NCBI GenBank assembly: GCA_963976285.1
Contig: CAXBJY010000005.1
Location: forward strand, 3,164 to 67,163
DNA: 64,000 nt
DNA from: an uncultured Gammaproteobacteria bacterium
GTDB lineage: Bacteria > Pseudomonadota > Gammaproteobacteria > Ga0077536
Direction of reading: 5' to 3'
The notes beneath the pieces are model-generated. The model saw nothing but the letters and a program-made list of their open reading frames with translations. It searched no databases and had not been told where the DNA came from. A program made the translations under genes and the position numbers. Positions within the stretch are counted from its first letter, which is position 1; the number at the start of each line of letters is the position of its first letter. Below, piece after piece: positions 8,576 to 25,396 of this stretch.

Positions 8576-9726
8576 TGATGGATTTGCTCCTGCAGCCGCT
8601 CGAGTACCGCGGCCGGAGTGATTGCGGGACGTGGCAGATCATCGATCGTGCCGGTGGTGATTTTCATATGCACGAAACGCGGGCCGTTGCCGCGGGGTTG
8701 CGCGAGAAACGCGCTCAGGTCGTCAGGATGCGCGGCGCGCGCCGCCACCGCATAACCGCAAGCCCGGGCGATGTCGGCGAAATCGACCCCGGCCGAAACC
8801 GTCGCCTGCGCACCGGTTGAATCGTGCGCCTCGTTGTCGAGCAACACATGCGACAGGTTGCCGCCGGCGTAAGCGCCGACCGTCGCGAGGTTGCCCATGC
8901 GCATGAGGCCCGCGCCGTCGCCGTCGATGATGATCACATGCAAATCCGGACGTGCGAGCGCAAGCCCGAGCCCGAGGCTCGAGGCACAACCCATCGAACC
9001 GACCATGTACAGCTGGTTCGCGCGGTCAGCGGCCGCGTACAATTCGCGCCCGCTGAACCCGGTCGTCGCGATCACGACGGACCCGCGCCCGGGGCTCGCG
9101 TCGATGATCCGTGCAAGCGCCTGCGCGCGGGTCGGGCGCGTCGCCGCCGCGCATTGTTCGATCGACGGTCCCGTAACCTGGGTTGCGCGCACGCGTTCCG
9201 GTGGCGGGGGATTCGACAGGGGATGCGGTGACACCGTGCCTTTGCGCATGACCAGGGCATAGGGTCGCCGTTCGCGCGTGAGGTAGGCCTGCGCGCGTTC
9301 GAGCGCCGGTCCGATATCCGCGGTGTCAGCCGGAAAGTATTCCCACGGTATCTCCATCGTGTCGAACAGTTCACCGGTAATCCGGCCCATGAGTTCGTGC
9401 TGGGGTTCGTCCTTGAGCCCGGGTGCGCCACGATGCGTGCAGATCACGAGCAGCGGGATGCGGAAGACATATGCGAGCGAGGTCAACGGACTGACGGCGT
9501 TGCCGAGACCCGAGTTCTGCATCATCGCGACTCCCCCGCGGCCGCCGATCGCGGCGCCGCAGGCTGCCGCCACCGCATCACCTTCGTTCGCGGCGGAAAC
9601 GTAAGTCAGCGCGGGATCGCCGATCACGTAGTTGATGAACGGGGTCAGAAACGAACACGGCACCCCCGCGTACCAGTCGAAGCCGGCCGCGCAAGCGCGG
9701 TCGACGAAATCTCGTGCTTCGATCAT
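8572..9726 (-). CDS. ppd: phosphonopyruvate decarboxylase (TPP-dependent)
   Basis: About 384 aa with TPP-binding GDG-x25-N region (IIIDGDGAGLMRMGNLATVGAYAGGNLSHVLLDNEAH). Lies between PEP mutase and the AEP transaminase. Confidence 0.8.
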   Translation of the reverse strand: MIEARDFVDRACAAGFDWYAGVPCSFLTPFINYVIGDPALTYVSAANEGDAVAAACGAAIGGRGGVAMMQNSGLGNAVSPLTSLAYVFRIPLLVICTHRGAPGLKDEPQHELMGRITGELFDTMEIPWEYFPADTADIGPALERAQAYLTRERRPYALVMRKGTVSPHPLSNPPPPERVRATQVTGPSIEQCAAATRPTRAQALARIIDASPGRGSVVIATTGFSGRELYAAADRANQLYMVGSMGCASSLGLGLALARPDLHVIIIDGDGAGLMRMGNLATVGAYAGGNLSHVLLDNEAHDSTGAQATVSAGVDFADIARACGYAVAARAAHPDDLSAFLAQPRGNGPRFVHMKITTGTIDDLPRPAITPAAVLERLQEQIHQ

Positions 9727-9742
9727 CGTGCTGTAAACCTGC

Positions 9743-11398
9743 TCAGGAATCCTGCTCCGCCGCGAAATCCCCGGCGCGCTCGAGATCGGTCAGTGAATTC
9801 ACATCGAGCCAGTGTCCGTGGATATACCACACGCGCACATCGCGGCCGGCGTCGACCATGGCGTTGATCAGCTCGGGCAGGCCGAGCTGAGCGAAATCGT
9901 CGCGTTCGGACAGTCGGTTTATCGCGTCCTCGAGCCACGTGCGTCCTTCGCCGGTCGCGCGGATCATGCCGATCCAGCGACCGCTGGGTTCGCCGTCCGC
10001 CCCGGGGTCGCGGCCTTCGACGATGCGCTTCAGACTCACGGCCTGGCCCCACATCGAGCGGTCGTCCGGTTCGCTGCAGTAGGCAAAATCCTGGGTGCCG
10101 TTGTGCACGAGTTCATCCGTCGCGGAATCGACAACGACGCTGAGGTCTGCGTCGCTCTCCATCAAATCGCGCAGGATGTAGCTGCGGAACAACAGATCAC
10201 CGTACATGATGACCATGTCGTCGCTGAACCGATCCATTGCGCAGCGCAGGGAGCTGAGTTCACCGGTGTTTGCAAACGCCTCGTTTACGAGCAGGTTGAT
10301 ACCCTGGACGTCGATACTTTCCGCCTTGTAACCCGCAACGACCGTAATGTCGTCGATGCCGCGCTTTTTACATTTATCGACGAGACGGCGGAGCAGGGGA
10401 ATGCCGGCGACCGGAATCATCGCTTTTGGCCGTTCGGCCGTGAGGCCTTCAAGGTCGCCGCCGCTCCCGCTGCCCGCGGCAAGGATGATCGCCTTCGTTT
10501 CGGCCTGGTAACTCGAGAAATAACGATCTTCGGCCGCCGCGAGTTCGTCCGCACCCTGCAGGCGAAACAGTTCGTCGACGCTTGCAATGCGGTCTTCGAT
10601 TTCCGTCAGTGACTCCGTTTCGTAGATCACGGCCGCGGTTTTCTGCATTGCCTGAACGGCGCTGCGGATCAGGTGGTTCGCCCAGATCACGAGGCTGATC
10701 TCCGCCTTGCGGAACACTTCGACGGGGGTACTGTAATACTTCGTCGGCACGATGACGACGGGCGCGCGGTTCGCCCATTCCGCGGCAAATTCGACGATCT
10801 GATCGGGGCGCGAGAGTTTGCTGTGGATCAGAATCGCATCGGCGCCGGCCTGCCGGTACGCTTCGGCGCGACGCAGCGCCTCGCCAATATCCCAGCCCGC
10901 GATCAACGCCTCGACGCGCGCCACGATACAGAAATCGTCGTCGGACTGACTGTCCTTGCCGGCAGCTATTTTGCCGCAGAACTCGTCGGCGTCCGCGAGC
11001 GGCTGGCGTTCACCGCCGATGAAGCTGTTCGTTTTCGGAAAGACCTTGTCTTCGATACACACGCCGCCGATATTGCGCTGCTCGAGTTTGCGCACGAGCC
11101 GGCGCATGTTATTGAAATTACCGTAACCCGTATCGCCATCGAGCAGGATCGGGATCGTCGTGGCATCGGACATGAACTCGAGCATATCGACGACCTGCGT
11201 CCAGCTCGCCTCGTTGTTGTCGCGGACGCCAAACTGCGCGGACAGGGCGAGTCCGCTGGCCCAGATCCCCCTGAAACCGGCTTCCTCCGCGATGCGCGCG
11301 CTGATGCCGTTGTGTGCCTCGAGGATGAATTCGAGCTGGTTCGAGCTAATCAGCGAACGCAGTGCGCGTGCTTTAGTCGGGGCGGTGGTATTCGTCAT
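9743..11398 (-). CDS. pepM: phosphoenolpyruvate phosphomutase fused to a C-terminal nucleotidyltransferase domain
   Basis: N-terminal 290 aa is an ICL/PEPM-family TIM barrel with PEP mutase-like motifs ([30 protein letters not shown]). The C-terminal domain has the glycine-rich NTP-transferase signature [23 protein letters not shown]. Confidence 0.8.
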
Positions 11399-13043: not shown

Positions 13044-14054
13044 ATGCGCTACGCCAAACTCCTCTTTCTCGTTATCGGCGTCGCGTTGCTCGTGTGGGTC
13101 GTCAAGCAGGCGAATATCGGTGAAATCTGGCGCCAGGTGCAGGCCATCAGCGTTGCGCAGATCGCCGGTGTGTTCGTGATCTACGCGTTGTATTTCGGCG
13201 CCGACGCGATCAGTTGGCAGGTTACGCTGGATTCCGTCGCGATGAACCTGCGCTGGGCGGGGCGTCTGTTCATCGTGCGTATGATCGGCGAGGCCTACAA
13301 CAACATCACACCGATGGCGTCGCTCGGCGGCGAACCAATCAAGGCCTGGTTTCTGAAAACGAACTACAACGTGCCCTTGAGCGACTCCGGCGCATCGCTG
13401 GTGCTGGCGAAAACCGCGAGCATGTTCTCGCTCGTCGTATTCGTCGGGATCGCACTCGTGCTAATCCTCGGGCACGACGATTTGTCCGCGAGTGACAAGA
13501 CGATGGCGAGTGTCGGACTTGCCTGGCTTGTGTTCAACGTGATCGTGTTCTTCCTGATGCAGCATCTGAAATTATCTACGTTCACCGCGACCCGCCTCGG
13601 ACGCACGCGGCTCGGAGAGCGGATGACGCATTTTATCGCGGGGCTGCAGAGCGTCGATGAGCAATTCGCGCGTTTCTACAAGCACCACCGCGGTCGCCTC
13701 GTGCTGTCGATGGCCTATGCGATGGCGAACTGGCTGCTCGGGGTGGTCGAGCTGTATTACATCCTCGGGCTGATCGGACATCCGGTCGGCTGGTGGGACG
13801 CCTGGATCATCGAAGCGATGGTGCAGATGATCCGCACGGCGGCATTTTTCATCCCGGCCGGGATCGGGGCGCAGGAAGGAGCGCTGATGATCGCGTGCAA
13901 TGCGCTGGCCGGTTCGCCGAATATCGGCATTGCCGCCGCGCTCGTGCGCCGCTTCAGGGAACTCGTGTGGATCGGAGTCAGCCTCGCGATTGCGGCGGCA
14001 ATGCACGTGAGTCCGAAAGTCGCGCGCGAGCCGGTCGCGACGCAGGATGCCTGA
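13044..14054 (+). CDS. hpnL: UPF0104 / MprF-flippase-like polytopic membrane protein (HpnL-like)
   Basis: 336 aa with about 8 predicted TM helices. Divergent from the phosphonate operon and adjacent to hpnA. Confidence 0.5.
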   Translation: MRYAKLLFLVIGVALLVWVVKQANIGEIWRQVQAISVAQIAGVFVIYALYFGADAISWQVTLDSVAMNLRWAGRLFIVRMIGEAYNNITPMASLGGEPIKAWFLKTNYNVPLSDSGASLVLAKTASMFSLVVFVGIALVLILGHDDLSASDKTMASVGLAWLVFNVIVFFLMQHLKLSTFTATRLGRTRLGERMTHFIAGLQSVDEQFARFYKHHRGRLVLSMAYAMANWLLGVVELYYILGLIGHPVGWWDAWIIEAMVQMIRTAAFFIPAGIGAQEGALMIACNALAGSPNIGIAAALVRRFRELVWIGVSLAIAAAMHVSPKVAREPVATQDA

Positions 14055-14069
14055 GTACGGCCGCGGCGC

Positions 14070-15053
14070 TTACGGGTGCGCGCGAAACCACGCGATCGCA
14101 TCTTCGAGCGCCTCGCGTGCGGGACGCGCCGTGTAGCCGAGTTCGGCGATCGCACGCGAGGAATCAAAATACATCTTCTTCTTCGCCATGCGTAATCCGT
14201 CGACCGTCGCCTGTGGCTCGGGGCCGTGGGTCAGCCACGCCCAGGCCTCGCTGGCATAGGCGACGGGATAGATCAGCGGGCGCGGCAGGCGGACACGGGG
14301 CGGCGGTCGGCCGCAGATCGCGGCGATCATCGTCAGAATTTCGCGCAGGCTCAGGTCCTCTCCGCCGAGGATATAGCGGCGACCAATCTCGCCGCGGTCG
14401 AGGGCCAGCAGGTGACCCGCGGCGACGTCATCGACATGCACGATGTTCAGCCCGGTATCGACGTACGCCGGCAGGCGGCCGGCCTGCGCGTCGCGCACGA
14501 CGCGACCGGTTGGGGTTGGCTTGATGTCGCGGGGACCGATCGGGGTCGACGGATTGACGATTACCGCCGGCAGATCGTGCGTTGTCACGAGTTCGTCGAC
14601 GGCGCGTTCGGCGAGGTATTTCGAACGCTTGTAGTGCCCAATCATATCGGCGAGTGTCACCGGCGTCGTTTCACTCCCGCGTGTTCCGTCACCCGGATTG
14701 CCGAGCGTCGCGACGCTGCTCGTATAGACAACCCGGCTAATGTTCGCGTCGAGCGCGGCGTGCATGAGCGCGCGCGTGCCATCGACGTTCGTGCGGTACA
14801 ACTCACGCGGATCGCGGGTCCATAAGCGGTAGTCAGCGGCGACGTGAAACAGCGTGTCACATCCGACGAGTGCCCGAGCGAGCGAGTCCGCGTCGTTCAG
14901 ATCCCCCTCGCGAACGTCGGCGTCGAGTCCGGCGAGGTTGCGTCGATCGGCTCCGGGTCGCACGAGTACGGCGAGTTCGGTTCCGCGCGCGCCAAGCAGT
15001 CTCGCGACCGCACTGCCGACAAATCCGGTCGCGCCGGTGACGAGCGTCTTCAC
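14070..15053 (-). CDS. hpnA: NAD-dependent epimerase/dehydratase, hopanoid-associated sugar epimerase (HpnA-like)
   Basis: VTGATGFVGSAV Rossmann motif and YxxxK (HYKRSK). Probable GTG start at 15053; the ORF extends to 15137. Confidence 0.7.
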   Translation of the reverse strand: MKTLVTGATGFVGSAVARLLGARGTELAVLVRPGADRRNLAGLDADVREGDLNDADSLARALVGCDTLFHVAADYRLWTRDPRELYRTNVDGTRALMHAALDANISRVVYTSSVATLGNPGDGTRGSETTPVTLADMIGHYKRSKYLAERAVDELVTTHDLPAVIVNPSTPIGPRDIKPTPTGRVVRDAQAGRLPAYVDTGLNIVHVDDVAAGHLLALDRGEIGRRYILGGEDLSLREILTMIAAICGRPPPRVRLPRPLIYPVAYASEAWAWLTHGPEPQATVDGLRMAKKKMYFDSSRAIAELGYTARPAREALEDAIAWFRAHP

Positions 15054-15054
15054 G

Positions 15055-15651
15055 TCAGCGAGCGCCGTCGGTGCCGGTGCGAATGAACTGCAAGGCAACG
15101 ACAAGCAGGGCGATCGGCGCGCCGATCGCGGCGGCATATAAAAAACCGACTTCCTGATTGCTCAGCGTGACGAGCGGAATCAGGTACAGCACGTCTTCGG
15201 TTTCAAAGCCCGCGAAACTCGCCTGCCGGACCGCGGCTTTGCCATGGCGCGACTCGATCATGTGACGCAGTTGAAAAATACCGGCGACCGCGATGCCTGC
15301 GACAAGACCGTAAACCGCCGCGGCGTCGCCGATCGTCGCCGTCAATCCGAATCCGAGGCCCGTGAACAGGCCGACGGTCACGAGCGCGTCGCTGAACAGG
15401 TCGTAGCGATGGCCAAACACGCTCATTTTGCCGCTCATGCGCGCGAGTTCGCCGTCGGTGTGGTCGAGGAAGTTTGACAGCACGATGCACAGCGCGGCGA
15501 GGTTGAACTGCGAACCGGTCGCAAACAGCCACGCGCCCGCGAGACCGACGAGCAAACGCAGCGTCGTCAGCGCGTTCGGATGCAGACGTGTATCGACGAA
15601 TGGCCGCACGAGCAGTGCCGCCGCGCGGGCATCCCAGGGTTTTGCGCTCAT
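15055..15651 (-). CDS. CDP-alcohol phosphatidyltransferase family protein
   Basis: Signature D-x2-DG-x2-AR-x8-G-x3-D-x3-D (DHTDGELARMSGKMSVFGHRYDLFSD) with multiple TM helices. ATG overlaps the hpnN stop (ATGA). Confidence 0.75.
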   Translation of the reverse strand: MSAKPWDARAAALLVRPFVDTRLHPNALTTLRLLVGLAGAWLFATGSQFNLAALCIVLSNFLDHTDGELARMSGKMSVFGHRYDLFSDALVTVGLFTGLGFGLTATIGDAAAVYGLVAGIAVAGIFQLRHMIESRHGKAAVRQASFAGFETEDVLYLIPLVTLSNQEVGFLYAAAIGAPIALLVVALQFIRTGTDGAR

Positions 15652-18260
15652 GCTGTTCGTACTGGTGAGAACTGCTTCAACAACGCGGGCAATACTAGCA
15701 AGGTGCACACGAGCGTCGCCACGATGCCGATCGTGAGCATGACGCCCATGCTCGCGGTGCCGGCATGGGACGATGTTGCGAGGTTGCCGAAACTGACCGT
15801 GGTGGTCAGGGCGCTGAACAGTACGGCACGGGCCGTACTCGTTTGCAGCAGATTACCGTTGTCCGGCAGCGCGGTCCGGTAGCGGTGGAGCATGTGCAAG
15901 GCACTGTCGACGCCGATCCCGAGCAGCAACGGGAGCGCGATGATGTTCGCGAAATTGAACGGCAGCGAGAACACGACGGACGCTGCAGTCGTGAGCAGGC
16001 CGGCGAGGATCAGCGGGCTCAGCACGATGGCGACGTCCTTGAACGAACGCAGGATCAGCCACAACAAGCCCGTGATCACGACGAACGCGCAGGAGAACGC
16101 CTGGATAAACGCGAGCACGACGGCGTCACTCGCGCCGAGGTTGATGACCGGCGCACCCGTGATTCGATCGCCGAGCACCTCGCGCACGGATTCGACGAAT
16201 CGTTTCATCGCGCGCGGATCATCCACCGGTTCGGCCGGGAAGATTTCGAGGCGGCGCGTGCCGGATTCCGTCACCCAGCGTTCGCGCAGCTCCGGCGGCA
16301 GGTCGGTGACGTCGAACGGCTCGGGTGCGAGGCTGTCGTTGAGTAGCGCGAGTCGGCCGTCGAAACTCATGAGCAGTTTTGCCTCGAGCGCCGCGAGCGC
16401 GACGGCCTGGGCGTCCGGACCCAGCGTCGCAAACCTGTCGCGCCACGCGATGAGCGCGGAGCGCAGGGCGGCAGCGGCGTCCATCGCGGCCTCGTCGTCG
16501 AGCGCGGCGAGCAGTTCGTCTATCGCCGTCAGGGTGGCGGCGGGGTCCGCGGCGGGTGTTGGCTGTGGCGACAGATCGGCGCCGAGGATGAGGGCGAGAT
16601 CGTCGACGATGGCGAGCTTTTCGTCCTGCCGCGCGGGCACGAGGTCATCGAGACTGCGCACGGATTGCACGGTGTCGAGCGAACTCAGCGTGACGCTCGC
16701 GTCGGCGACTTCGGCGGCGGAATCGAACAGCGCGGATATCGACATCGGCGATTGCTGATCATCGGCGATCAGATCGCGATACGTCGTGACGGACTGCGCA
16801 GCCGGGTTGTTCAGGTTCACCGGGTCCGTGTCGAATTTCGCGCCCGGGATTGCCAGCGCGGTGAGTATCCACGTAACGGTCGCCACGCCCAGTACGGCGC
16901 GCGCGTGACGGCGCGGAAATGACGCGACTCGATCGGGCAGCGTAAACGTGCGTGTCGCGGGGCCGGGCTGCGGCATCACATGCAGCAGCGCGGGCAGCAG
17001 CGTGATACTGACGAGCAGACTGATGAACATGCCAACCCCGGCAATGAGGCCGAGCTCCGCAACCCCGCGATACGCCGTTGGCAGGAACGCAAAGAATCCC
17101 GTTGCGGTTGTCAGCGCACACAGGATCAACGATACGCCCACATGGCGGCTCGTACGGTTGATGGCGAAATCGGCGTTGTTGTGCCGGAGCATTTCGCGGT
17201 AGCGCAGGCAGATATGAATCGCGAAATCGACGCCGAGACCCACGTACAGCACCGCGAACGCGATCGAAATCATGTTCAGGGTGCCGACGGCGGCGACCGC
17301 GAAGCCCGCGGTAAAGACGAGGCCCACGATCAGCGTTACGAGCGTCGCGACGACGAGTACGATCGAGCGCAGGCCGATCAGCAGGCACACCAGCACCATC
17401 ACGAGCGCGAGGGTACCCGCGTTCTGCGAACCGGTGATCACGCTGTCGAGTTCGTCGTAAGCGAGCGCCGCGGCGCCGGTCAGGCGGATGTTCACGCCGT
17501 GTTCGCGATCGAGCGCGAGCGCTGCGGCATGGGCTGCGACCGCCTTCATGGCCGGTTCCGCGGGCAGCAGGGCGGTGTAATCGAGGCGTGGTTGCAGCAC
17601 GACGAACTCGCGATGCACGGCGGTGTCTTCGGCATCGCCCGTGAGCAGGGCTTGCCACGACAGCGGTACGTTGTTGCCACGGTTCAGTTCGTCGATAGCG
17701 CTTGCGATCCGAGCCGTCGCCGGCACAATCGCCGCCGGTGTCGTCTCCGCCGTCATTGCGTCCCGGAGCAGCCCGAACAACACGGCGCTCGAGCGCTCGG
17801 CGCTGAGACGCGCAAGAAACGGTTGTGCTTCGCCGAGTTGATCGCTGAGCGCCTGAAGTTCGTTCGGTGCGAGATACAACAGCTGATTGCGCCGCAGAAA
17901 CGGATCATCACGCGGGTAGAACACCTCGCCGACGATATCGTCCGCCGCGCGCAGCCGCTGCGTCAGCGCACCGGCGGCGTCGCGTGCCACATCGGCGGTT
18001 GCGCCGTCGATGACGACGACGATCGTATCGGCGAAGAACGGGAAGTCCCGTTTATAGGCGGTGTACGTCGCCCGCCACGGCAGCTTCTCCGACAGCATCG
18101 CACCGGTGTCGGTATTGATCGCAATATGGCTGATGGCATACCCGGCGACGAGCGCCGCGCCGACAAGGTAAGCGACAATAACCGGCCATGCCCGCCGCTG
18201 GGCGGTATCGACGAGACGGCCGATCACGTTCTCGGCCAGCGGGTACAGGGTGGCGAGCAT
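15648..18260 (-). CDS. hpnN: MMPL/RND-superfamily hopanoid transporter
   Basis: 870 aa with two large periplasmic loops and 12 TM helices in an RND/MMPL arrangement, inside the hopanoid operon. Confidence 0.8.
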   Translation of the reverse strand: MLATLYPLAENVIGRLVDTAQRRAWPVIVAYLVGAALVAGYAISHIAINTDTGAMLSEKLPWRATYTAYKRDFPFFADTIVVVIDGATADVARDAAGALTQRLRAADDIVGEVFYPRDDPFLRRNQLLYLAPNELQALSDQLGEAQPFLARLSAERSSAVLFGLLRDAMTAETTPAAIVPATARIASAIDELNRGNNVPLSWQALLTGDAEDTAVHREFVVLQPRLDYTALLPAEPAMKAVAAHAAALALDREHGVNIRLTGAAALAYDELDSVITGSQNAGTLALVMVLVCLLIGLRSIVLVVATLVTLIVGLVFTAGFAVAAVGTLNMISIAFAVLYVGLGVDFAIHICLRYREMLRHNNADFAINRTSRHVGVSLILCALTTATGFFAFLPTAYRGVAELGLIAGVGMFISLLVSITLLPALLHVMPQPGPATRTFTLPDRVASFPRRHARAVLGVATVTWILTALAIPGAKFDTDPVNLNNPAAQSVTTYRDLIADDQQSPMSISALFDSAAEVADASVTLSSLDTVQSVRSLDDLVPARQDEKLAIVDDLALILGADLSPQPTPAADPAATLTAIDELLAALDDEAAMDAAAALRSALIAWRDRFATLGPDAQAVALAALEAKLLMSFDGRLALLNDSLAPEPFDVTDLPPELRERWVTESGTRRLEIFPAEPVDDPRAMKRFVESVREVLGDRITGAPVINLGASDAVVLAFIQAFSCAFVVITGLLWLILRSFKDVAIVLSPLILAGLLTTAASVVFSLPFNFANIIALPLLLGIGVDSALHMLHRYRTALPDNGNLLQTSTARAVLFSALTTTVSFGNLATSSHAGTASMGVMLTIGIVATLVCTLLVLPALLKQFSPVRTA

Positions 18261-18265
18261 TTGCT

Positions 18266-18988
18266 TCAGGCGATCTTGGCGCGTTCATTACGCGACCCCG
18301 TCGTGGCGAAAGCCGGGCGCAACAGCATGGCCGCCTGGTGCAGGGTCGCGAGCGCCGCGCGATGCCAGCGCGCGAGGCGCAGCAGCGCGGGCAAATCCCC
18401 GGGGCTGTGCGCGAGCGAGGTGACAACGGACCATGGTCGCGTCGTGCCGTTGCTGGCAACCGCATCAAGCGCTATTCGCGGGATCGCGAAACCGACCGGA
18501 TCGACGATTGCCCGCACGGCGACGAAGCGTACTCCGGCGGCGGCCGCCGCCGCGCCGATTGCCGCGGATTCCATGTCGACGGCGACACATCGGCTTGCGG
18601 TGTGGATCGCTGCTTTTTCCGTCGGGTCGGTAATTGCGTGATCACTCGTATAGCCGGATCCGGTGCGTACATCGGTCGTGCGCAACGCATGGATGATGTC
18701 GCGCTGCCAGGTCGGATCGCATTGGCGGTGTGTGCCGCTGGCATCCACCACGTCGGTGTACACGAGAAGTTTGCCGGGGGGCAGGTTCGCCACGAGCGCG
18801 CCGGCGGTTCCCCATGACACGAGCGCATCGACCCGACCGGCCAGCATGCGCTCGGCCCCGGCGGCCGCGTTCGCGGGACCAATCCCGGTAACAATAATCT
18901 GGTGGCCATACGGATTCCCGTCGCGCGAGACGGCGGCATTCAGCGTGCGCGCCTCGTCGGCCATGGCCGTGACAAAACCTAATCGCAA
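18266..18988 (-). CDS. hpnG: PNP/MTA-nucleosidase family hopanoid-associated phosphorylase
   Basis: N-terminal RLGFVTAMADEA beta-strand typical of MTAN/PNP. About 240 aa. Probable TTG start. Confidence 0.7.
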   Translation of the reverse strand: MRLGFVTAMADEARTLNAAVSRDGNPYGHQIIVTGIGPANAAAGAERMLAGRVDALVSWGTAGALVANLPPGKLLVYTDVVDASGTHRQCDPTWQRDIIHALRTTDVRTGSGYTSDHAITDPTEKAAIHTASRCVAVDMESAAIGAAAAAAGVRFVAVRAIVDPVGFAIPRIALDAVASNGTTRPWSVVTSLAHSPGDLPALLRLARWHRAALATLHQAAMLLRPAFATTGSRNERAKIA

Positions 18989-19010
18989 AATAGTGTTCCG
19001 GTTTGAATGT

Positions 19011-20099
19011 TCAGACGACGCGTGATTCAGCTTCGTCGATAACAGTGGGCGCGCTGGCCGTGATTTCCCGTTGCGGCAGACCGCTCGAGGCGAGCGCGAA
19101 CAGGGCCCACAAGCCGGCGTTCGATCGCACGAGCGCGTTCGTCGAAATCACCGTCGCCTTGACGCTGCGGCGTAAAATTTTTACTTCGCTGCCGTCGGCG
19201 TAATCGCGGTGACGATTGAGCTTGCGCAACGTGAGCACGGCCATACCAAGCGCCCACAAACAGAATTTACGCATGCCGGGTTGCTCGCGCGGCAGCATGC
19301 AGGTGTAACGCAAGGCATTGCGCAGGTGCCCGTGAGCAACACTGATCAATTCACCGAGTGCATCCTCGAACCCCGGGCCGCCGCGGCCGGGCGCGATGTC
19401 GGACAAGCGAACGCCACGGGCGGCAAACACGTCGGCCGGCAGCCAGCACGCGCCGCGGGCACGGTCGTCCCAGATGTCTTTCAGGATATTCGTCATTTGC
19501 AGGCCCTGGCCGAAAGAGACGGCGAGCCGCATCATCTCGGCACGCCGCGGTTGCAGTTCAGGACAGTGGTCGCAAAACAACGCGGTCAACATTTCGCCCA
19601 CGACGCCGGCGACATAGTAGCAGTAGCGGTCCATCGCTGCCTGGTCTGCGAGTCCGTCGAGCGTTTCCTGACCCTGGTAATAGACCATGCCGTCGGCCAT
19701 CGTGCGTACGCACGCTTCCATCGCCGCGCGCTGGTTCGCGTTGAGACTGTGCGTGATGCGGATCACGGCCGGCGTCTCGGCGACGAGCTCGCGCTCCGCC
19801 GCGAGGGTGTGCGAGGCGAGCCGCGGCGCGAGTTCGGCGGCAAATGCCGCGGCGTCGCCATCGCCGCGAACGATATCAATGAACGCCTGCGAGTAACGCA
19901 GTTTGTCGTCGAACGGCAGCCCGGCGTCGTCCTCGATGGTGTCGGCGATCCGGCACAGCAGGTACGCATTCGCGACCGCGTGATACAGCGCCGCGGGCAG
20001 CGTCGGAATCGTCAGCGCGAAGGTTCTGGACACGCCCTGCAGGATACGGTCCTGAAAAGCGGTGTCGCGCTCACTCGGTGGGTTACTCATGGGGGGCAT
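19011..20099 (-). CDS. sqs: squalene synthase (squalene/phytoene synthase family)
   Basis: Asp-rich motifs (RIADTIEDD, NILKDIWDD) and an isoprenoid-synthase fold. The roughly 360-aa length favours a single-enzyme Sqs type over HpnC/HpnD. The ORF extends upstream to 20474, but the conserved core starts near M126. Confidence 0.75.
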   Translation of the reverse strand: MPPMSNPPSERDTAFQDRILQGVSRTFALTIPTLPAALYHAVANAYLLCRIADTIEDDAGLPFDDKLRYSQAFIDIVRGDGDAAAFAAELAPRLASHTLAAERELVAETPAVIRITHSLNANQRAAMEACVRTMADGMVYYQGQETLDGLADQAAMDRYCYYVAGVVGEMLTALFCDHCPELQPRRAEMMRLAVSFGQGLQMTNILKDIWDDRARGACWLPADVFAARGVRLSDIAPGRGGPGFEDALGELISVAHGHLRNALRYTCMLPREQPGMRKFCLWALGMAVLTLRKLNRHRDYADGSEVKILRRSVKATVISTNALVRSNAGLWALFALASSGLPQREITASAPTVIDEAESRVV

Positions 20100-20223
20100 A
20101 GTGTATCCGTCTTGGGTCGTGCGGAGCCAGTCGCCGGCGGCAGCGGCGCGACCGCGGTCGCAGCGCGCGTTATGATCCGCGCCCAGACCATGACGCGGGG
20201 CGGTTCCCGGCGGGGGAACGGGG

Positions 20224-21234
20224 ATGGACTCGATAACGGAAATCAGCGTGACAACGACGGCGCCGGGCACGTTCACGATCGCCTGGCCGCCCGCATTCTC
20301 GCCCGACCCCGTCAGCGTCTGCGCGAGTTCCGCGCCGGACACGCTGGCGCAGGCCGACCCGGTGGTGACGGACGCTGTCGGCCACTGCACGCTCGGGGGA
20401 TTCGCGCCGGATGCGCGCCAGTATTTCCGCCTGAGTCGCACGAACGGCGAGGATCTCGTCGTCGCCGAACGCAATGTACCGCTCGCAGGGGCGGTGAACT
20501 TCCGCGATCTTGGCGGCTACGCCGCGATTGACGGCCGGCGGGTCCGGTGGGGGCGTCTGTTCCGCTCCGGCCACCTGTCGACCCTGACCCCGGCCGGGCA
20601 GGCGGCTTTCGCACGACTCGGCATCGCGACCGTGTGTGATTTTCGCCTCGCCTCGGAGCGTGCCCGGGAGAACATGACCTTACCAGCGGGCGTGACGCTC
20701 GAAGGCATTGAAATACCGCCCGGGGTGCGCGATCCCGAGTATTTTCACCGGGTTTTCCGCGACGCCAGCGGGCCGGACGACGTGGCCGAGGCGGTGCACG
20801 AGGTGGTCCTGTCGATGGTCAACGAGTCGGCCGACCGCTATCGCCGTCTGTTCGAGGTGTTGCTCGAGCCGGGAGAACGCAACATTTTGATCAATTGTTC
20901 GGCGGGCAAGGAACGCACCGGGATCGCCACGGCGCTGCTGCTCAGCGCTTTGGGCGTTCCCCGGGAAACGATTTATTATGACTTCATGCTGTCGGCCGTG
21001 TATTTTCCCGCGCTTGCGGAAATTCCCCGGGTGCTCGAAAAGTATGCTGTCAGTGCCGTCGGCGATGCCGCGCAGCGCCTCGTGATGCCGTTGCTCGAAA
21101 CGCGCGCATCGTATCTGCAGGTCGCATTCGATTCGATCGACCGCGAGTGCGGGGACACGGACGCGTTTTTACGCAAGCATTACGATCTCGGCACGGCCGA
21201 ATGTACCGAACTGCGGCGACGTTACCTCGTATGA
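20224..21234 (+). CDS. protein-tyrosine phosphatase family protein (Y_phosphatase3-like)
   Basis: CX5R P-loop INCSAGKERTG. Confidence 0.6.
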   Translation: MDSITEISVTTTAPGTFTIAWPPAFSPDPVSVCASSAPDTLAQADPVVTDAVGHCTLGGFAPDARQYFRLSRTNGEDLVVAERNVPLAGAVNFRDLGGYAAIDGRRVRWGRLFRSGHLSTLTPAGQAAFARLGIATVCDFRLASERARENMTLPAGVTLEGIEIPPGVRDPEYFHRVFRDASGPDDVAEAVHEVVLSMVNESADRYRRLFEVLLEPGERNILINCSAGKERTGIATALLLSALGVPRETIYYDFMLSAVYFPALAEIPRVLEKYAVSAVGDAAQRLVMPLLETRASYLQVAFDSIDRECGDTDAFLRKHYDLGTAECTELRRRYLV

Positions 21235-21280
21235 AGGCGAATTGATCGCAGCGATAACAAGAAGATATTGAGGATACGCC

Positions 21281-22024
21281 ATGAGCAGACTCTACGAAGA
21301 CGGGGACAAGTACGGCTATCAGTCGGATTTCGCCATCGTCGAAGCGTACAACAGCGCGGTGAAAGACCTTGTCCGCAAGCGCTTCGATGAATCCGGCCTC
21401 GCGTGGCGCGACTTTGTTGCCGGGCGCGCCTACGATGCGATCACGAAGGACGACATGGCGGCAATCGAACAACGCCTGCTCAGCTACGGTTACCGCTTCG
21501 AGCCGTCGGCCATGTCCTCGGCGACCGAGCGTCCGGAAGCCTACAAGGATTCCGGTTTGCACGACGAGAACTTCTGTTTCGAACACCCGGACGCACCAAC
21601 CGCCCCTGCCGATGCAGGCGGGCGGGAGCTGCGCGGTGCCGGCGACAATGTCGTCAGCCGCGCGGCGAATGTCACCGGCATTGCGCGTTACGTGCGCACG
21701 AGCGACAAAGTGCTCGAATACCTGACGAACGGTGTTCCGGACGACACGATCGCCATCGTCGATGACTCGGGCGGCACGCTCACCGCGCCTATCCTCGAGA
21801 AATTCAAAGCCGTGCTGTGTGCCGGCGGGACAACGCGCTCGCATCTCGCGATCCTCACCCGCGAATACGGAATCCCGTGCTTCATGAACGCGCGCCTGAG
21901 CGGTATCAGGACCGGCGATGTGCTCGAAGTCGAAGCGACGGCGAAAGCAAAATCGGGGGACGACTATGCCAGCGGCAGCGACGTTTCCGGGAAGGTCTGG
22001 CGGCTCAAGGCGTCCGGAGAATAG
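21281..22024 (+). CDS. PEP-utilising-enzyme mobile (phosphohistidine swivel) domain protein
   Basis: C-terminal GGTTRSHLAILTREYGIPCF resembles the PEPS/PPDK phospho-His segment GGRTSHAAIIARELGIP. The N-terminal 150 aa are unassigned. Confidence 0.6.
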   Translation: MSRLYEDGDKYGYQSDFAIVEAYNSAVKDLVRKRFDESGLAWRDFVAGRAYDAITKDDMAAIEQRLLSYGYRFEPSAMSSATERPEAYKDSGLHDENFCFEHPDAPTAPADAGGRELRGAGDNVVSRAANVTGIARYVRTSDKVLEYLTNGVPDDTIAIVDDSGGTLTAPILEKFKAVLCAGGTTRSHLAILTREYGIPCFMNARLSGIRTGDVLEVEATAKAKSGDDYASGSDVSGKVWRLKASGE

Positions 22025-22027
22025 AAC

Positions 22028-23590
22028 ATGTCAGAGAACAAGCTAACCTACGCGCAGCTGCTCGAAACGAATAATCTGATCCAGCAGAACGCGGACGAAA
22101 CCTACTGGCTGTGCGCCACCCGCACGGTGCAGGAATCGAAGATCTTTCCGGTCTCGGCCTACATACTGTTTTCCTACCTGAACTGCTTTTACCGCTATCC
22201 GACGTTGCTGAAAAAGATCGAGGCGAGCATGTCGGCCGAGGAAATCGGCGATCGCGCGCGCAACCAGGGACAGAAAATCACGGCCTGGACGCTGCCGTGC
22301 TTCTACCTGCTCGGCCGCGAAATGCTGATCAACTGGGGCATGATCAAACCGACGGACGCGGTCGAGGATGTGATCTACGTACTCGACTTCTGGAAACGCT
22401 TTCAATTGTCATGGCATCGCAATAACGGCAACCTGACGAACCGCCAGGCGGGACACCGCGCGCAGGTAATGCCGGAGCAGAAGCTGCAGGTGTTCCATGC
22501 CGATGCATTCGAGTGCCGCGAAGGCGATCCCCTGCACAAGGCCGCGCAGGCCTTCATGGCGACCACGGCGCAATACGGTTTTCTCGTTTCGTGCGAGAGC
22601 CGGCTCACGATGCACAACCACGGCCCGTACAGGATTTCCGATCGGCGTGAAATGCTCGTGCGCGATTTTCGGGAACTGTCCGAGTACGACGTGCCGTGGC
22701 TCGACGGGGTCGGACGGGATATCCCGTTCAATAACCTCACCGTGACGATGATCCTCGAGGACTGCCACATCAACCTGCTCGACGACTGGGGCTCGTTCGA
22801 GTCCGAGCCGGAAATGCGTGCCGAGCACATGGTCGCGGTGGGCCTGTATACGGCGGATAACCTGTCCGACGGACACATCCCGGTGGGCATGGGCAGTAAG
22901 CAGGAATTGACGGACACATTCCTCGACCTGACTGAACGCGTGAAGGTAGCGACCGGCAAGCTGTGGCAGGAAATGTCCGGGTGGACCCGCGATCAGCAAC
23001 TCGACGCCGGCGCGCTGACGTATTTCGCCGTGATCAAGGAGTTCGCGCATTACGCCGGCGTGTATGACGTCGACGACTGGATGATGATCGACGAACGCGC
23101 GGAGCGCTTCCGCCCGTTGCTGAACGACGAGTACGGCAATCTGTTCCTCGGCGAACTCGTCGGTTACATCACGACACCGAGCCAGCGGATGCATGACTAC
23201 ACGATGATGCAGCACACCGGGACGCCGGCGCGCGCGCTGAGTTATTTTCCCTATTCGATCCTCGACGACGGCGACTATACGGCTTCGGTCGGGCCGATGC
23301 GTCCCGGTACGAGTAACCTGCCGGCGAAAGTCGACCGTTACCGCACGACCGAAGGCGTACTCGGCCTCGACGAGTACAATCGGCGCAGCCGCGAATTCGT
23401 GCCGAACAGTTGTTCGCCGCGTTTCCGTTATCTGTGCGCGGACTGGGTGAAGTACCACTACGAGACACCACTGGCCGATGAACTGTTCGCGCTCGAGCAA
23501 AAGGATTCGCGCCTGCTCAAGGGCAAGGGGGCGAGCCTGCGCCGGGATGATATCGAACGTTTGCGCGCCGCGAGCAACGCAGGGGAGTAG
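22028..23590 (+). CDS. hypothetical protein, 520 aa
   Basis: Protein-like composition rich in W/Y/F. 4-nt spacing from both the upstream and downstream genes. Confidence 0.5.
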   Translation: MSENKLTYAQLLETNNLIQQNADETYWLCATRTVQESKIFPVSAYILFSYLNCFYRYPTLLKKIEASMSAEEIGDRARNQGQKITAWTLPCFYLLGREMLINWGMIKPTDAVEDVIYVLDFWKRFQLSWHRNNGNLTNRQAGHRAQVMPEQKLQVFHADAFECREGDPLHKAAQAFMATTAQYGFLVSCESRLTMHNHGPYRISDRREMLVRDFRELSEYDVPWLDGVGRDIPFNNLTVTMILEDCHINLLDDWGSFESEPEMRAEHMVAVGLYTADNLSDGHIPVGMGSKQELTDTFLDLTERVKVATGKLWQEMSGWTRDQQLDAGALTYFAVIKEFAHYAGVYDVDDWMMIDERAERFRPLLNDEYGNLFLGELVGYITTPSQRMHDYTMMQHTGTPARALSYFPYSILDDGDYTASVGPMRPGTSNLPAKVDRYRTTEGVLGLDEYNRRSREFVPNSCSPRFRYLCADWVKYHYETPLADELFALEQKDSRLLKGKGASLRRDDIERLRAASNAGE

Positions 23591-23594
23591 CGCG

Positions 23595-24200
23595 ATGATG
23601 AGCGACCTACATCGAGTGATGCATGGCATTGCGATCAAGAAACATGCGGCGCCCGCGGCTATTGCCGCGCTCGCCGGCGTCTCCGTGGAAACCGCGGGCG
23701 CGACCCTCGCCGCCGCCGAGGCGAGCGGGCGGGTCGTCGCCGCGGACGGCAAATATCTGCTGTCGCCCGCCGGGCAGATGATCCTGCTCGGCGAGTATTC
23801 GCGTTTCTACGACGAGTTGCGCCAGGACCAGGATTTCGTCGCCGCCTACGAGCGCTTCGAAATCATCAACAACGATTTGAAGAGCCTGATCACGGACTGG
23901 CAGACGATGGACATCGGCGGCCAGAAAGTGCCAAACGATCATTCCAATGCGGATTATGACGATCGGATCATCGGCCGGCTCGGCGATCTGCACGAACGCT
24001 TCGAGCCCGTGCTCGGCGTCATGGTAGCGCGCGAACCGCGTTTGCAGTGGTATGCGGAGCGGCTCACCGAAGCGCTGGAGAAAGCCGAGGACGGTGATGT
24101 CGCCTGGGTCAGCGACGCGACGATCGAGAGCTACCACACCGTGTGGTTCGAAATGCACGAAGACCTGTTGCGCCTGCTCGGTCGCGAGCGAACGGAATAA
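23595..24200 (+). CDS. hypothetical protein
   Basis: AGGGGAG RBS 8 nt before ATGATG. Third gene of the operon. Confidence 0.45.
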   Translation: MMSDLHRVMHGIAIKKHAAPAAIAALAGVSVETAGATLAAAEASGRVVAADGKYLLSPAGQMILLGEYSRFYDELRQDQDFVAAYERFEIINNDLKSLITDWQTMDIGGQKVPNDHSNADYDDRIIGRLGDLHERFEPVLGVMVAREPRLQWYAERLTEALEKAEDGDVAWVSDATIESYHTVWFEMHEDLLRLLGRERTE

Positions 24201-24250: not shown

Positions 24251-25033
24251 GTGACAAGACTCGCAGGAAAAATTGCTTTGATTACCGGCGCCAGCTCCGG
24301 GATCGGTCGCGAATGCATGTGCATGTTCGCGCGCGAAGGAGCCAGCGTGTTCGGTGTTGCCAGGACACAGGCGAATCTCGACGAAACGCTGAAGCTCGTA
24401 ACGGACGCCGGTGGCGACGGCGCCGTGTTCAGTGCCGATCTGTCGGATCCCGAACAGGCCGAAGCGGCGGTGAACGCGGCGATCGCGCATTACGGTCGCA
24501 TCGATATTCTCATCAACGCGGCCGGGGTTGGCTACAGTCTCAAGGACACGAGCCCGGGTTCGATGGATCCGATCGATACGACCCCGATCGACAAATGGCG
24601 CGAAGTGATGGCGATCAACCTCGACAGCCTGTTTTTCGTGAGTCGTCTCGTTGTACGCCAGATGAAAAAACAGCAATCGGGCTCGATCGTGAATGTCGCG
24701 AGTATCTTCGGCATGGGCGGAGCGCCGGATGCGCACACCTACACGGCGACGAAAGGCGCGATCATCAACCTGACCCGCTCGATGGCGGTCGCTTATGTCG
24801 ATGACGGGATCCGGACGAATGCGGTCGCCCCCGGTTTCGTCACGACCCAGATGGTCGAGATCGTACTCGACGTGCTTTTTTCCGAGGAAAACGCCGCGGC
24901 GACTTCGCCGATGAAACGCCCGGCGACAACGGCGGAAGTGGCCTACGGTTGCCTGTATCTCGCTTCCGACGAGGCCTCGTACTGTAACGGTACGATCCTC
25001 GCGATCGATGGCGGATCGAGCGCACGCGCCTGA
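24251..25033 (+). CDS. SDR family oxidoreductase
   Basis: TGASSGIG Rossmann motif and YxxxK (YTATK). GTG start with an AGGAA RBS. Confidence 0.8.
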   Translation: MTRLAGKIALITGASSGIGRECMCMFAREGASVFGVARTQANLDETLKLVTDAGGDGAVFSADLSDPEQAEAAVNAAIAHYGRIDILINAAGVGYSLKDTSPGSMDPIDTTPIDKWREVMAINLDSLFFVSRLVVRQMKKQQSGSIVNVASIFGMGGAPDAHTYTATKGAIINLTRSMAVAYVDDGIRTNAVAPGFVTTQMVEIVLDVLFSEENAAATSPMKRPATTAEVAYGCLYLASDEASYCNGTILAIDGGSSARA

Positions 25034-25045
25034 GCGCGCCGTGGA

Positions 25046-25396
25046 TTACTCGCAGGGGAATGCGCGATTCAGCGCGTTCAGGACGATGCTGCTGGCCTCA
25101 AAATCGAGTTCGTTCGGGTGTGAATCGAGGTACGCCATGACGGCGCCGAATGCGTGATCGAACTTGTCTCCTTTTGGAAAGCAGATCACGCGTTCAAGCC
25201 GGCCCCATAATGCCCAGGTCGCGTGGGTTTCCACGGCCGCGAGGATATAACCGTCGCAGTAGTGCTTGCCGTTTTCACCGTTCGAGCCGTTACAGGATTC
25301 GAGCAGCTCCCGGCCACTGATTTGATCGGCCTGTACCGGGCCGATGCTTGCGCTGAACAGCGCGAGCGCAAGGGCGAGGCGGATGATGGTGTTCAC
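25046..25396 (-). CDS. small secreted hypothetical protein
   Basis: Signal peptide MNTIIRLALALALFSASIGPVQA, several Cys, 116 aa. Confidence 0.5.
   Translation of the reverse strand: MNTIIRLALALALFSASIGPVQADQISGRELLESCNGSNGENGKHYCDGYILAAVETHATWALWGRLERVICFPKGDKFDHAFGAVMAYLDSHPNELDFEASSIVLNALNRAFPCE

Follow-up and report, generated by a model that had tools for sequence, protein, structure and literature searches.

A conserved operon around a stand-alone swivel-histidine protein as the candidate substrate-specific half of a split small-molecule kinase

Introduction

What does a swivel phospho-histidine domain do when it is encoded as a protein of its own, beside two proteins that belong to no named family? 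The question is raised by a locus in a 64,000-nucleotide stretch of DNA from an uncultured gammaproteobacterium (the window), where a 247-aa protein with a PEP-utilisers mobile domain (PEPmob247) is followed by proteins of 520 and 201 residues (P520 and P201; together, the trio). An earlier note on this DNA took the locus for a split phosphotransfer system of unknown substrate, a description to which the conserved triad, its fusions, the His motif and the co-occurrence of pyruvate-phosphate-dikinase (PPDK) and phosphatase genes lend support at the level of sequence.

Results

The locus comprises five co-directional, tightly packed genes, which with two diagnostic motifs lie in the window as follows:

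20224..21234, + strand: PF13350 phosphatase, 336 aa by ORF translation
20896..20916, + strand: CX5R motif CSAGKER of the phosphatase, from the translation
21281..22024, + strand: PEPmob247, 247 aa, PF00391
21824..21844, + strand: GGTTRSH motif of PEPmob247, with the His188 codon CAT at 21842-21844
22028..23590, + strand: P520, 520 aa, unnamed family
23595..24200, + strand: P201, 201 aa counted from the first ATG, unnamed family
24251..25033, + strand: SDR, 260 aa, GTG start, PF13561/PF00106

Except that the third trio protein has 201 rather than 202 residues, the reading frames lie where the earlier note had placed them; missing from it was the SDR gene, a fifth operon member 50 nt past P201. 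The tight coupling claimed for the trio is seen in gaps of 3 nt between PEPmob247 and P520 and 4 nt between P520 and P201, with 46 nt separating the phosphatase gene from PEPmob247. The impression of a lower local GC is correct in numbers (0.611 for the trio vs 0.628 for the window), yet the value is not unusual, as 24 % of windows of that size do not exceed it, and the GC3 of the trio genes (0.77-0.80) equals that of neighbouring genes. Compared with window and neighbours, neither GC nor GC3 of the trio carries a signal of horizontal transfer, and the suggested horizontal acquisition is left without support from composition, though relatives of the trio are located on megaplasmids.

PEPmob247 matches PF00391 alone in Pfam (aa 154-219, 30.2 bits against a gathering cut-off of 23.1 bits); its C-terminal part is the swivel (PEP-utilisers mobile) domain and its N-terminal ~125 aa belong to no known family. 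The top NCBIfam matches are to the C-terminal His domain of PRK08296 models, and neither PPDK_N nor PEP-utilizers_C was found in the protein with Pfam or NCBIfam, in agreement with its earlier description as a mobile His domain without ATP-grasp or PEP/pyruvate-binding domains. The motif quoted there, GGTTRSHLAILTREYGIPCF, is present in the translation and contains the catalytic-type histidine, residue 188, which is predicted to be the phosphorylated one. GGTTRSH supplies the G-G-x-x-x-H loop of PF00391, and the pattern GGT[TVPS]RSH[LI][AG]I is kept in 51 of 52 called genes of clades 1 and 2, the former being the window's own, as well as in a distant subfamily. No ATP-grasp (PPDK_N) or PRK05878-type gene occurs in the operon or anywhere else in the 64-kb window, and PEP-utilizers_C, the other domain of a complete dikinase, is absent from four of the encoded proteins.

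Neither P520 nor P201 has a significant match in Pfam or NCBIfam, which bears out the claim that they belong to no recognisable family, and neither has a sequence relative in the PDB. All 954 homologues of P520 are unnamed; the family forms 426 clusters at 50 % identity, and full-length matches within the best 120 of the 954 are 61-98 % identical across classes. Distant relatives of ~375 aa span aa 12-355, the core, whereas the C-terminal extension (aa ~355-520) is confined to clades 1 and 2. Throughout the superfamily there is little or no variation at three arginines (R32, R97 and R192) and two tyrosines, and the "W/Y-rich" label given to the protein is mildly true (W 2.1 %, Y 5.0 %). The AF2 model (pLDDT 77.6, pTM 0.83) has an alpha+beta architecture with an antiparallel sheet, and a Foldseek search of the PDB matched no structure to it; as modelled, P520 has no detectable known fold. 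The earlier note had proposed to look here for an ATP-grasp or a PEP-binding TIM barrel. Neither was found: the missing profile and Foldseek matches led us to reject the first, and the antiparallel-sheet model, with no match to PEP-utilizers_C, the second. A phenylphosphate-synthase-type substrate domain was likewise rejected, as sequence models of that type do not match P520. We predict P520 to be the phosphoryl-acceptor and substrate-binding component.

P201, with 1138 homologues that are all unnamed, combines a winged-helix-like N-terminal domain with a C-terminal helical bundle bearing the invariant motif SYHTVWFE.HEDLL; in the AF2 model of a natural fusion (P0045) the P201 part reaches a pLDDT of ~90. 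Its Pfam matches are to winged-helix families and fall below threshold (19.5 bits vs 35), and its Foldseek matches are weak (E of at least 0.09), to IclR/MarR and O-methyltransferase winged-helix domains. With these values and an acidic pI of 4.8, we did not place it among the winged-helix regulators (IclR/MarR/TrmB); it is predicted to be an accessory subunit.

The gene upstream of the trio had been assigned to the tyrosine phosphatases, and the product indeed matches PF13350 (Y_phosphatase3, E 4.9e-61, aa 86-335) behind an N-terminal stretch of ~85 aa, with the family's CX5R loop at Cys225-Arg231 (CSAGKER); judged by sequence it is a phosphatase of the protein-tyrosine-phosphatase superfamily. 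It is present in 50 of 54 clade-1 loci, and the same family closes the pRB98 operon and trails the triple-fusion gene in pROB02. The SDR has generic SDR matches in NCBIfam; where clade-1 loci extend far enough downstream, nearly all encode it behind P201, with 68-97 % identity.

Inspection of 80 related genome loci showed the trio in the same order in every one, so the arrangement is far from chance. The carrier gene lies directly upstream of P520 in 51/51 clade-1 and 26/26 clade-2 testable loci, and P201 lies downstream in 39/40 and 18/18, respectively. The pairing of carrier and P520-like protein persists at 27-34 % identity in 41 of 48 loci of the distant subfamily, near which no PPDK_N, P201 or phosphatase occurs. 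Natural fusions join the same parts: 722-aa proteins carry P201 at the C-terminus of P520, a His domain is fused to a P520-like domain in P0287, P0321 and a 542-aa protein of pRB98, and a 793-aa protein of Rhodococcus opacus B4 (pROB02) unites the His domain, the P520 core and P201. Strict gene order and natural fusions together argue that the trio is one functional unit, apparently one enzyme of three proteins. Neither outcome that the earlier note had named as fatal to its reading, a plain hydrolase at P520 or a triad not conserved elsewhere, was found. The system is widespread: when one genome per species was scanned, 419 stretches were found to encode a relative of P520, most of them from uncultured Gamma- and Alphaproteobacteria of soil and water. 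Catabolic megaplasmids of Rhodococcus and Novosphingobium carry it as well.

Within 8 kb of the clade-1 loci there is no ATP-grasp gene (0/54), from which a phosphoryl donor acting in trans is suggested. A truncated PPDK of the PRK05878/VadK type (ATP-grasp plus His domain) is present in 19 of 26 loci of the paralogous clade 2, whose trios are 62-66 % identical to those of clade 1, and accompanies the trio in pRB98, pSA1 and pROB02. Two of these enzymes (loci L067 and L164) score 713 and 707 bits against an NCBIfam PRK05878 cut-off of 456 bits, and the partner, built from PPDK_N and PF00391, has its own His motif intact. Both in clade 2 and on plasmids from cultured bacteria it shares an operon with the same phosphatase family: the clade-2/pRB98 operon encodes kinase parts, BCCP-BC-CT, CoA ligase, thiolase and phosphatase, and the pROB02 set comprises P450, ferredoxin, reductase, ADH, ALDH, kinase parts and phosphatase.

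The gene sets of the two clades are distributed complementarily in gammaproteobacterial MAGs, with the phosphatase in the clade-1 operon only and ATP-grasp and carboxylase in clade 2 only. Thirteen assemblies hold both loci, which on the complete chromosome OZ257136.1 lie 1.65 Mb apart, and in pRB98 three acceptor modules stand beside a single truncated PPDK; this gene content makes supply of the clade-1 carrier in trans plausible. Genes flanking clade-1 loci vary, including hydantoinase-type genes (~8 loci), a PycB-like carboxyltransferase (6), which in some operons comes without BC or BCCP, ABC transporters and a methyltransferase, and none of them indicates an aromatic substrate.

Discussion

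We consider it probable, at roughly 60 %, that the operon supplies the substrate-specific half of a small-molecule kinase that is split and works through a swivel histidine, together with two enzymes that use and later remove the phosphate, and that the ATP component is encoded elsewhere. This reading builds on direct observations, namely gene content, conservation, fusions, the His motif, the joint occurrence of PPDK and phosphatase and the lack of a known P520 fold; from these we infer phosphotransfer itself, its direction, the donor in trans and the nature of the substrate. PEPmob247 would hold the phosphoryl group on His188 and dock onto P520, whose fold appears to be novel and which P201 may stabilise, and there the group would move to a hydroxyl of a small molecule undergoing catabolism, for which a phenolic compound bearing a side-chain alcohol or ketone is the likeliest candidate. 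The SDR could oxidise the side-chain alcohol, and the CX5R phosphatase would later hydrolyse the (aryl) phosphate "handle". As donor we propose a truncated PPDK from another locus, typically the paralogous operon that also encodes a biotin-dependent carboxylase, CoA ligase and thiolase. Since that partner has its own His domain, the proposed scheme leaves the second carrier unaccounted for. Also counting against a kinase are the lack of ATP-grasp genes at clade-1 loci, the distant subfamily with neither PPDK_N, P201 nor phosphatase, and the variable clade-1 flanks.

More tentatively, the P520 family as a whole may represent small-molecule kinases of a new class, modular in build, driven by ATP and resembling a miniature PTS. 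A VadK-type truncated PPDK would autophosphorylate on histidine and act as a common "Enzyme I", from which phosphate would be relayed, His to His, onto dedicated swivel-domain carriers, every one of them having its own partner, an acceptor domain that is specific for the substrate and new in fold (P520, alone or with P201). A single donor could then serve acceptor modules in several operons, including that of the window.

The same genes would also suit a transphosphorylase that is independent of ATP, in which the trio moves phosphoryl from a phospho-intermediate made by clade 2 to fresh substrate through His188; with the handle recycled and ATP unspent, the window's operon would need no ATP-grasp partner, as its absence from clade-1 loci and the sharing of genomes by the two clades would have it. 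There is a precedent in HpeH, which is reported to pass phosphate from 4-phosphoacetophenone to acetovanillone on its own (PMC12167813). However, the neighbouring phosphatase would waste the recycled group, and the closely related clade-2 trios adjoin an ATP-grasp enzyme, which argues that the normal donor is ATP-derived His~P; we find this route improbable. Still harder to credit is that P520 performs unrelated chemistry (e.g. as a hydratase, lyase or decarboxylase) on the substrate or product of a carboxylase, with the His protein as a switch or remnant. Such a role would fit the PycB-like carboxyltransferase without BC or BCCP, as well as a P520 in which neither a known fold nor any signature of kinases or phosphate binding can be recognised, but the catalytic histidine is retained in nearly all called genes, the three arginines and two tyrosines are (near-)invariant, and the covalent link between swivel His and P520-like domains is reminiscent of HpeH and rifampin phosphotransferase, where such a tethered domain brings phosphate to the substrate site.

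We give an equally low probability to a regulatory module with P201 as winged-helix DNA-binder and P520 as ligand sensor, controlled by the His carrier as in PTS-controlled regulators, the phosphatase and SDR then being the regulated enzymes. Its attraction lies in the fold of the P201 N-terminus, in weak Foldseek matches that are mostly to IclR/MarR regulators, in a sub-threshold TrmB match of the pROB02 fusion and in VadK, which has been described as a regulatory histidine kinase. Yet P201 is acidic, with 7 K/R vs 9 D/E in the 80 residues of the winged-helix region, and its best-conserved part is the C-terminal His/Glu/Asp-rich bundle rather than that region; the same fold serves as dimerisation domain in O-methyltransferases, also among the Foldseek matches. 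Moreover, P201 is joined to the P520 C-terminus in the 722-aa proteins, P520 itself shows enzyme-like conservation across classes among its best full-length matches, and separate TetR, HTH and LuxR regulators already flank the pRB98 operon.

The split-kinase reading has its closest parallels in PpsAB, the phenylphosphate synthase of Thauera, and in CreHI (4-cresol, C. glutamicum) and HpeHI/AcvAB (hydroxyphenylethanones), two-component phenolic dikinases in which a swivel phospho-His serves a separate substrate domain and the ATP-grasp resides on another polypeptide. Operon logic extends the likeness, since the Cre, Hpe and Acv operons also combine a kinase with enzymes acting on the phospho-intermediate (BCCP-BC-CT, dehydrogenases, P450) and a handle-removing phosphatase; by this analogy, ATP-dependent phosphorylation of a phenolic hydroxyl may be expected here. 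The clade-2/pRB98 operon parallels HpeHI-HpeCBA-HpeD-HpeE or AcvAB-AcvCDE-AcvF, with BCCP-BC-CT in the order of acvCDE, and the pROB02 gene set matches the Cre pathway layout known from C. glutamicum. The parts nevertheless differ. Unlike HpeH, which has a rifampin-binding-domain fold, P520 matches no PRK08296 model and no rifampin phosphotransferase structure; the His domain of the trio is a separate protein encoded upstream rather than a C-terminal domain, and P201 is an additional third subunit. No trio protein has the make-up of a phenolic-dikinase alpha subunit (rifampin-binding-like domain plus C-terminal swivel, PRK08296-type), and the partner in related loci, which retains PF00391 beside PPDK_N, differs from the beta subunit, a stand-alone ATP-grasp with no His domain.

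Rifampin phosphotransferase has the same three stations (ATP-grasp, swivel His and substrate-binding domain), but as a single polypeptide with another substrate-binding fold that shares no sequence or Foldseek similarity with P520. The PF00391 swivel with its catalytic His recalls PEP synthase/PPDK and PTS Enzyme I-HPr, and a possible His-to-His relay would resemble the PTS; unlike these, the operon has no PEP/pyruvate TIM barrel, HPr or EII, and the donor is presumably ATP. The partner found in clade 2, pRB98, pSA1 and pROB02 is, like VadK (PRK05878, M. tuberculosis Rv1127c), an ATP-grasp plus His protein with no PEP/pyruvate barrel. In the available portion of its description, VadK autophosphorylates on His with ATP/Mg, regulates the methylcitrate cycle and has an established role in M. 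tuberculosis virulence, and that portion names no phospho-acceptor (PMC13400623). Unlike VadK, the truncated PPDK of these related loci sits in catabolic operons beside a dedicated His carrier and acceptor module. P520 modules are candidate downstream acceptors for VadK-type enzymes.

That phenolic and lignin-derived compounds can be degraded by way of a transient phosphate handle was recognised only recently (Cre, Hpe, Acv), and the strategy has been tied to the single PpsAB/HpeHI kinase family. The operon points to a second solution whose kinase and phosphatase parts would both be non-homologous, the phosphatase being PTP-type (PF13350) where HpeD/AcvF are HAD-type, and it gives two unannotated protein families, of about 1000 clusters each, candidate partners that can be tested. 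For lignin valorisation, candidate new kinase and phosphatase parts are at hand in the cultured hosts of pRB98, pROB02 and pSA1.

Operon organization and composition

The trio of carrier, P520 and P201 lies within five co-directional genes separated by successive gaps of 46, 3, 4 and 50 nt.

20224-21234, + strand: phosphatase, 336 aa (PF13350 Y_phosphatase3, E 4.9e-61)
21281-22024, + strand: PEPmob247, stand-alone swivel-His carrier, 247 aa (PF00391)
22028-23590, + strand: P520, 520 aa, no Pfam/NCBIfam match
23595-24200, + strand: P201, 201 aa, no Pfam/NCBIfam match
24251-25033, + strand: SDR, 260 aa, GTG start

The CX5R loop of the phosphatase is CSAGKER (residues 225-231). PEPmob247 has PF00391 as its sole Pfam match (aa 154-219; 30.2 bits against a cut-off of 23.1) and carries the GGTTRSH motif with His188; in NCBIfam it comes closest to the C-terminal His domain of the PRK08296 models (~600 aa). 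TAL-effector matches of the carrier in the PDB were rejected as a summed-repeat artefact, each stretch being individually non-significant. Both P520 and P201 lacked any family match in Pfam or NCBIfam and any sequence relative in the PDB. The earlier note had remarked on a lower local GC and a possible horizontal acquisition. The trio is indeed numerically lower (0.611; mean of the window 0.628, sd 0.022), but 24% of windows of that size reach values as low, and its GC3 equals that of the neighbouring genes; composition thus gives no support to horizontal acquisition.

Conservation in two clades

The protein collection contains 954 homologues of P520, all unnamed (61-98% identity for the full-length matches among the top 120), and 1138 of P201. 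Scanning one genome per species yielded 419 stretches with a P520 relative; 80 of these loci were fetched, nearly all from MAGs of Gammaproteobacteria and Alphaproteobacteria (Roseiarcus and others), and one of them, L001, matches the window at 98% identity. They fall into two clades. Clade 1 (n=54; 73-98% identity), the window's type, has the order phosphatase - carrier - P520 - P201 - SDR, with the carrier directly upstream in 51/51 testable loci, P201 downstream in 39/40 and the phosphatase in 50/54; an ATP-grasp or biotin carboxylase gene lies within 8 kb in none of the 54. Clade 2 (n=26; 62-66% identity) comprises paralogous loci that read carrier - P520 - AMP-dependent ligase - P201, followed by a ~600-aa truncated PPDK (PPDK_N + PF00391) - BCCP - biotin carboxylase - PycB-like carboxyltransferase - thiolase. 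Here the carrier is upstream in 26/26 loci and P201 downstream in 18/18, and the truncated PPDK is present in at least 19 of the 26, a lower bound because several of them lie on short contigs. Conservation of the triad elsewhere, a question raised by the earlier note, is borne out by this neighbourhood survey, and judged by gene order the trio is one conserved unit.

In alphaproteobacterial clade-2 loci, an SDR, a 506-aa Y_phosphatase3 protein, a thiolase and a second ligase are encoded just upstream. Gammaproteobacterial MAGs have the phosphatase in the clade-1 operon only, and the ATP-grasp and carboxylase genes in clade 2 only; the two operons look complementary.

Fusions and a distant subfamily

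Five P520 homologues of 722 aa are P520+P201 fusions, whose C-terminal parts align with P201 sequences at 55-66% identity. Among 1.84 billion cluster representatives searched exhaustively, no more than 426 clusters belong to the P520 family, and they include a distant subfamily of ~375 aa (27-34% identical to P520 over its aa 12-355); the same search returned two proteins, P0287 and P0321, with an N-terminal PF00391 domain fused to a P520-like domain. Directly upstream of distant-subfamily genes in metagenomic loci, in 41 of 48 testable cases, lies a ~105-aa swivel-domain gene with the same motif, GGTxRSHIG. All three parts are joined, in the window's gene order, in a 793-aa 'PEP-utilizing enzyme' of Rhodococcus opacus B4 pROB02 (His domain, PF00391, aa 57-108; P520 core, tblastn, query aa 28-347; P201, query aa 56-201, 30%, E 1e-13). 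In the superfamily as a whole, the invariant or almost invariant residues include R32, R97 and R192, together with Y45 and Y201.

A four-gene string of the distant subfamily recurs in high-GC genomes (L126 7675-10726, L143 7688-10832, L108 7724-10822): the ~105-aa swivel His-domain protein, a ~380-aa P520-like protein, a ~305-aa DUF7065+DUF7064 protein whose gene start overlaps the stop of the P520-like gene, and a VTT/DedA membrane protein. ATP-grasp, P201 and phosphatase genes are all absent near these strings. No papers on DUF7064/DUF7065 or on stand-alone mobile domains came up in literature searches.

Truncated PPDK and operons of cultured hosts

The ~600-aa clade-2 protein passes the cut-off of NCBIfam PRK05878 'pyruvate, phosphate dikinase' (713 and 707 bits vs 456) with a match confined to the ATP-grasp and His domains; the GGxTSHAAV His motif of this protein is intact. 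VadK (Rv1127c) of M. tuberculosis, which has the same architecture, autophosphorylates on His with ATP/Mg, the passages on VadK naming no phospho-acceptor (PMC13400623).

Cultured bacteria also possess the full clade-2 operon. In Rhodococcus oxybenzonivorans pRB98 the annotation runs PEP-utilizing enzyme - hypothetical (525 aa) - AMP-binding - hypothetical (202 aa) - pyruvate,phosphate dikinase (579 aa) - biotin/lipoyl protein - biotin carboxylase - carboxyltransferase - OB-fold - thiolase - tyrosine-protein phosphatase (PF13350). The locus tags of its key genes are CBI38_RS33580 (carrier), RS33585 (P520), RS33595 (P201) and RS33600 (truncated PPDK). Immediately upstream (L162 5905-10275), beside an acyl-CoA synthetase, are two more paralogous modules, one a pair (125-aa His domain and 398-aa P520-like protein) and the other a 542-aa His+P520-like fusion, such that three acceptor modules accompany a single truncated PPDK. 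A DUF7065-like gene comes after the 542-aa fusion. Novosphingobium resinovorum pSA1 carries a rearranged version of the operon. The neighbours of the pROB02 triple fusion (WP_043827458.1) are a truncated PPDK (WP_231869151.1), P450, ferredoxin, FAD reductase, Zn-ADH, aldehyde dehydrogenase and a Y_phosphatase3 gene that overlaps the stop codon of the fusion gene. A PobA-like hydroxylase near the clade-2 locus L164 proved to be a generic FAD oxidoreductase and gives no support to an aromatic substrate.

Proposed function

In the Hpe and Acv pathways, which place a temporary phosphate handle on a catabolic substrate, the two-component kinase HpeHI/AcvAB phosphorylates a phenolic OH, with a CoA ligase and C-C cleavage as later stages (PMC9618137; bioRxiv 10.1101/2022.04.28.489975). 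In the Hpe study the biotin carboxylase took the phosphorylated ketone only and a phosphatase afterwards strips the phosphate (PMC9618137), whereas the Acv preprint proposes the opposite order, dephosphorylation and then carboxylation (bioRxiv 10.1101/2022.04.28.489975). The clade-2/pRB98 operon agrees with this pathway logic, and its gene order BCCP-BC-CT is that of acvCDE; it differs in its phosphatase, the PTP-type enzyme of the trio loci appearing to take the place of the HAD-type HpeD/AcvF. The gene set around the pROB02 triple fusion has what we take to be the layout of the C. glutamicum Cre (4-cresol) pathway. Because pRB98 fits Hpe/Acv and pROB02 fits Cre, the trio appears to stand in for a PpsAB-type kinase in pathways of two distinct layouts.

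The sequences show the component proteins and how they are conserved, their fusions, the conserved His and a recurrent association with a truncated PPDK and a PTP-type phosphatase. We infer that PEPmob247, phosphorylated on His188, would dock on P520/P201 and phosphorylate the hydroxyl of a small substrate, that the SDR would oxidise a side-chain alcohol and that the phosphatase would later remove the phosphate. No truncated PPDK lies within the 64-kb window and, since no clade-1 locus encodes an ATP-grasp donor, the donor of this operon would act in trans. Such an arrangement is plausible given that clade-1 and clade-2 loci occur together in 13 assemblies, that the complete MAG chromosome OZ257136.1 carries clade-1 L009 (~1.99-2.01 Mb) and clade-2 L164 with its truncated PPDK (~3.66-3.68 Mb) 1.65 Mb apart, and that phosphatase and ATP-grasp/carboxylase genes are complementary in distribution. 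PTP-family enzymes typically prefer aryl phosphates; this preference and the pathway analogy suggest, tentatively, a phenolic ketone or alcohol as candidate substrate. Neighbours in some clade-1 loci seem to point to ketone chemistry: hydantoinase A/B-type gene pairs adjoin the operon in ~8/54 (L007, L009, L010, L011, L013, L018, L023, L038), their best NCBIfam matches, below cut-off, being caprolactamase and acetophenone carboxylase subunits, and a PycB-like carboxyltransferase, without BC or BCCP, lies between P201 and SDR in six (L010, L025, L028, L032, L034, L042).

The expected chemistry is of a known kind, swivel-His phosphotransfer combined with a catabolic phosphate handle. In the literature and family libraries searched there is no description of P520, P201, the free-standing carrier, the PTP-type phosphatase or the partnership with a truncated PPDK of VadK type whose own His is retained. 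The trio may represent a new modular class of kinases, a potential that, from the sequences, we regard as real.

Predicted folds and alternative readings

For P520, the ATP-grasp or PEP-binding barrel fold suggested in the earlier note was rejected. The AlphaFold2 model (20-sequence alignment; pLDDT 77.6, pTM 0.83) shows a helical protein that includes an antiparallel sheet of six strands. Its best Foldseek hit among PDB structures reached E 0.36 (TM ~0.1), with rifampin phosphotransferase (RPH) chains absent from the list, a profile search of PDB sequences returned noise only (limit dextrinase, E 0.48), and Pfam and NCBIfam, the PRK08296 models included, had no match. An HpeH/RPH-type substrate domain was rejected on the same sequence and Foldseek searches and on the fold of the HpeH substrate domain, that of the rifampin-binding domain of RPH (PMC12167813); on these searches and the predicted model, P520 is not a diverged HpeH. 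We consider it improbable that P520 is an unrelated enzyme merely under the carrier's control.

The model of a natural P520+P201 fusion (pLDDT 80.8) is confident in its P201 part (~90), which forms a winged-helix-like domain followed by a long-helix bundle carrying the invariant SYHTVWFE.HEDLL. In Foldseek it weakly resembles (E >= 0.09) IclR/MarR regulators and the wHTH domains through which O-methyltransferases dimerise. That the trio is a regulatory module in which P201 binds DNA has little probability in our view, as P201 is acidic (pI 4.8), and we read P201 as a structural or catalytic accessory subunit. The trio might also be an ATP-independent transphosphorylase that recycles the phosphate handle, as HpeH on its own does in vitro (PMC12167813), a reading that we regard as unlikely.

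Other genes in the window

7499-11398, - strand, with 13044-15137: phosphonate-type cluster, resembling 2-aminoethylphosphonate-type biosynthesis
7499-8575, - strand: class-V aminotransferase
8572-9726, - strand: TPP enzyme resembling phosphonopyruvate decarboxylase
9743-11398, - strand: PEP mutase fused to nucleotidyltransferase
15648-20123, - strand: hopanoid-associated genes, directly upstream of the operon and divergent
25046-25396, - strand: Rap1a-family protein (type VI secretion immunity protein), 116 aa, E 4.9e-15

An LPG_synthase_TM membrane protein and an NAD-dependent epimerase are encoded near the phosphonate-type cluster, which suggests that its product may be a phosphonate-decorated lipid or glycan. 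The hopanoid-associated genes encode an MMPL/RND HpnN-like transporter, a PNP_UDP_1 HpnG-like nucleosidase and a squalene/phytoene-synthase-family protein. As hpnN-, hpnG- and SQS-like genes lie upstream in L001-L005 only and are lacking there in the remaining 49 loci of clade 1, we take the adjacency to be coincidental rather than functional. No T6SS genes were seen near the Rap1a-family gene; its product has an N-terminal hydrophobic, signal-like start, and the gene is kept beside the SDR in L001-L005.
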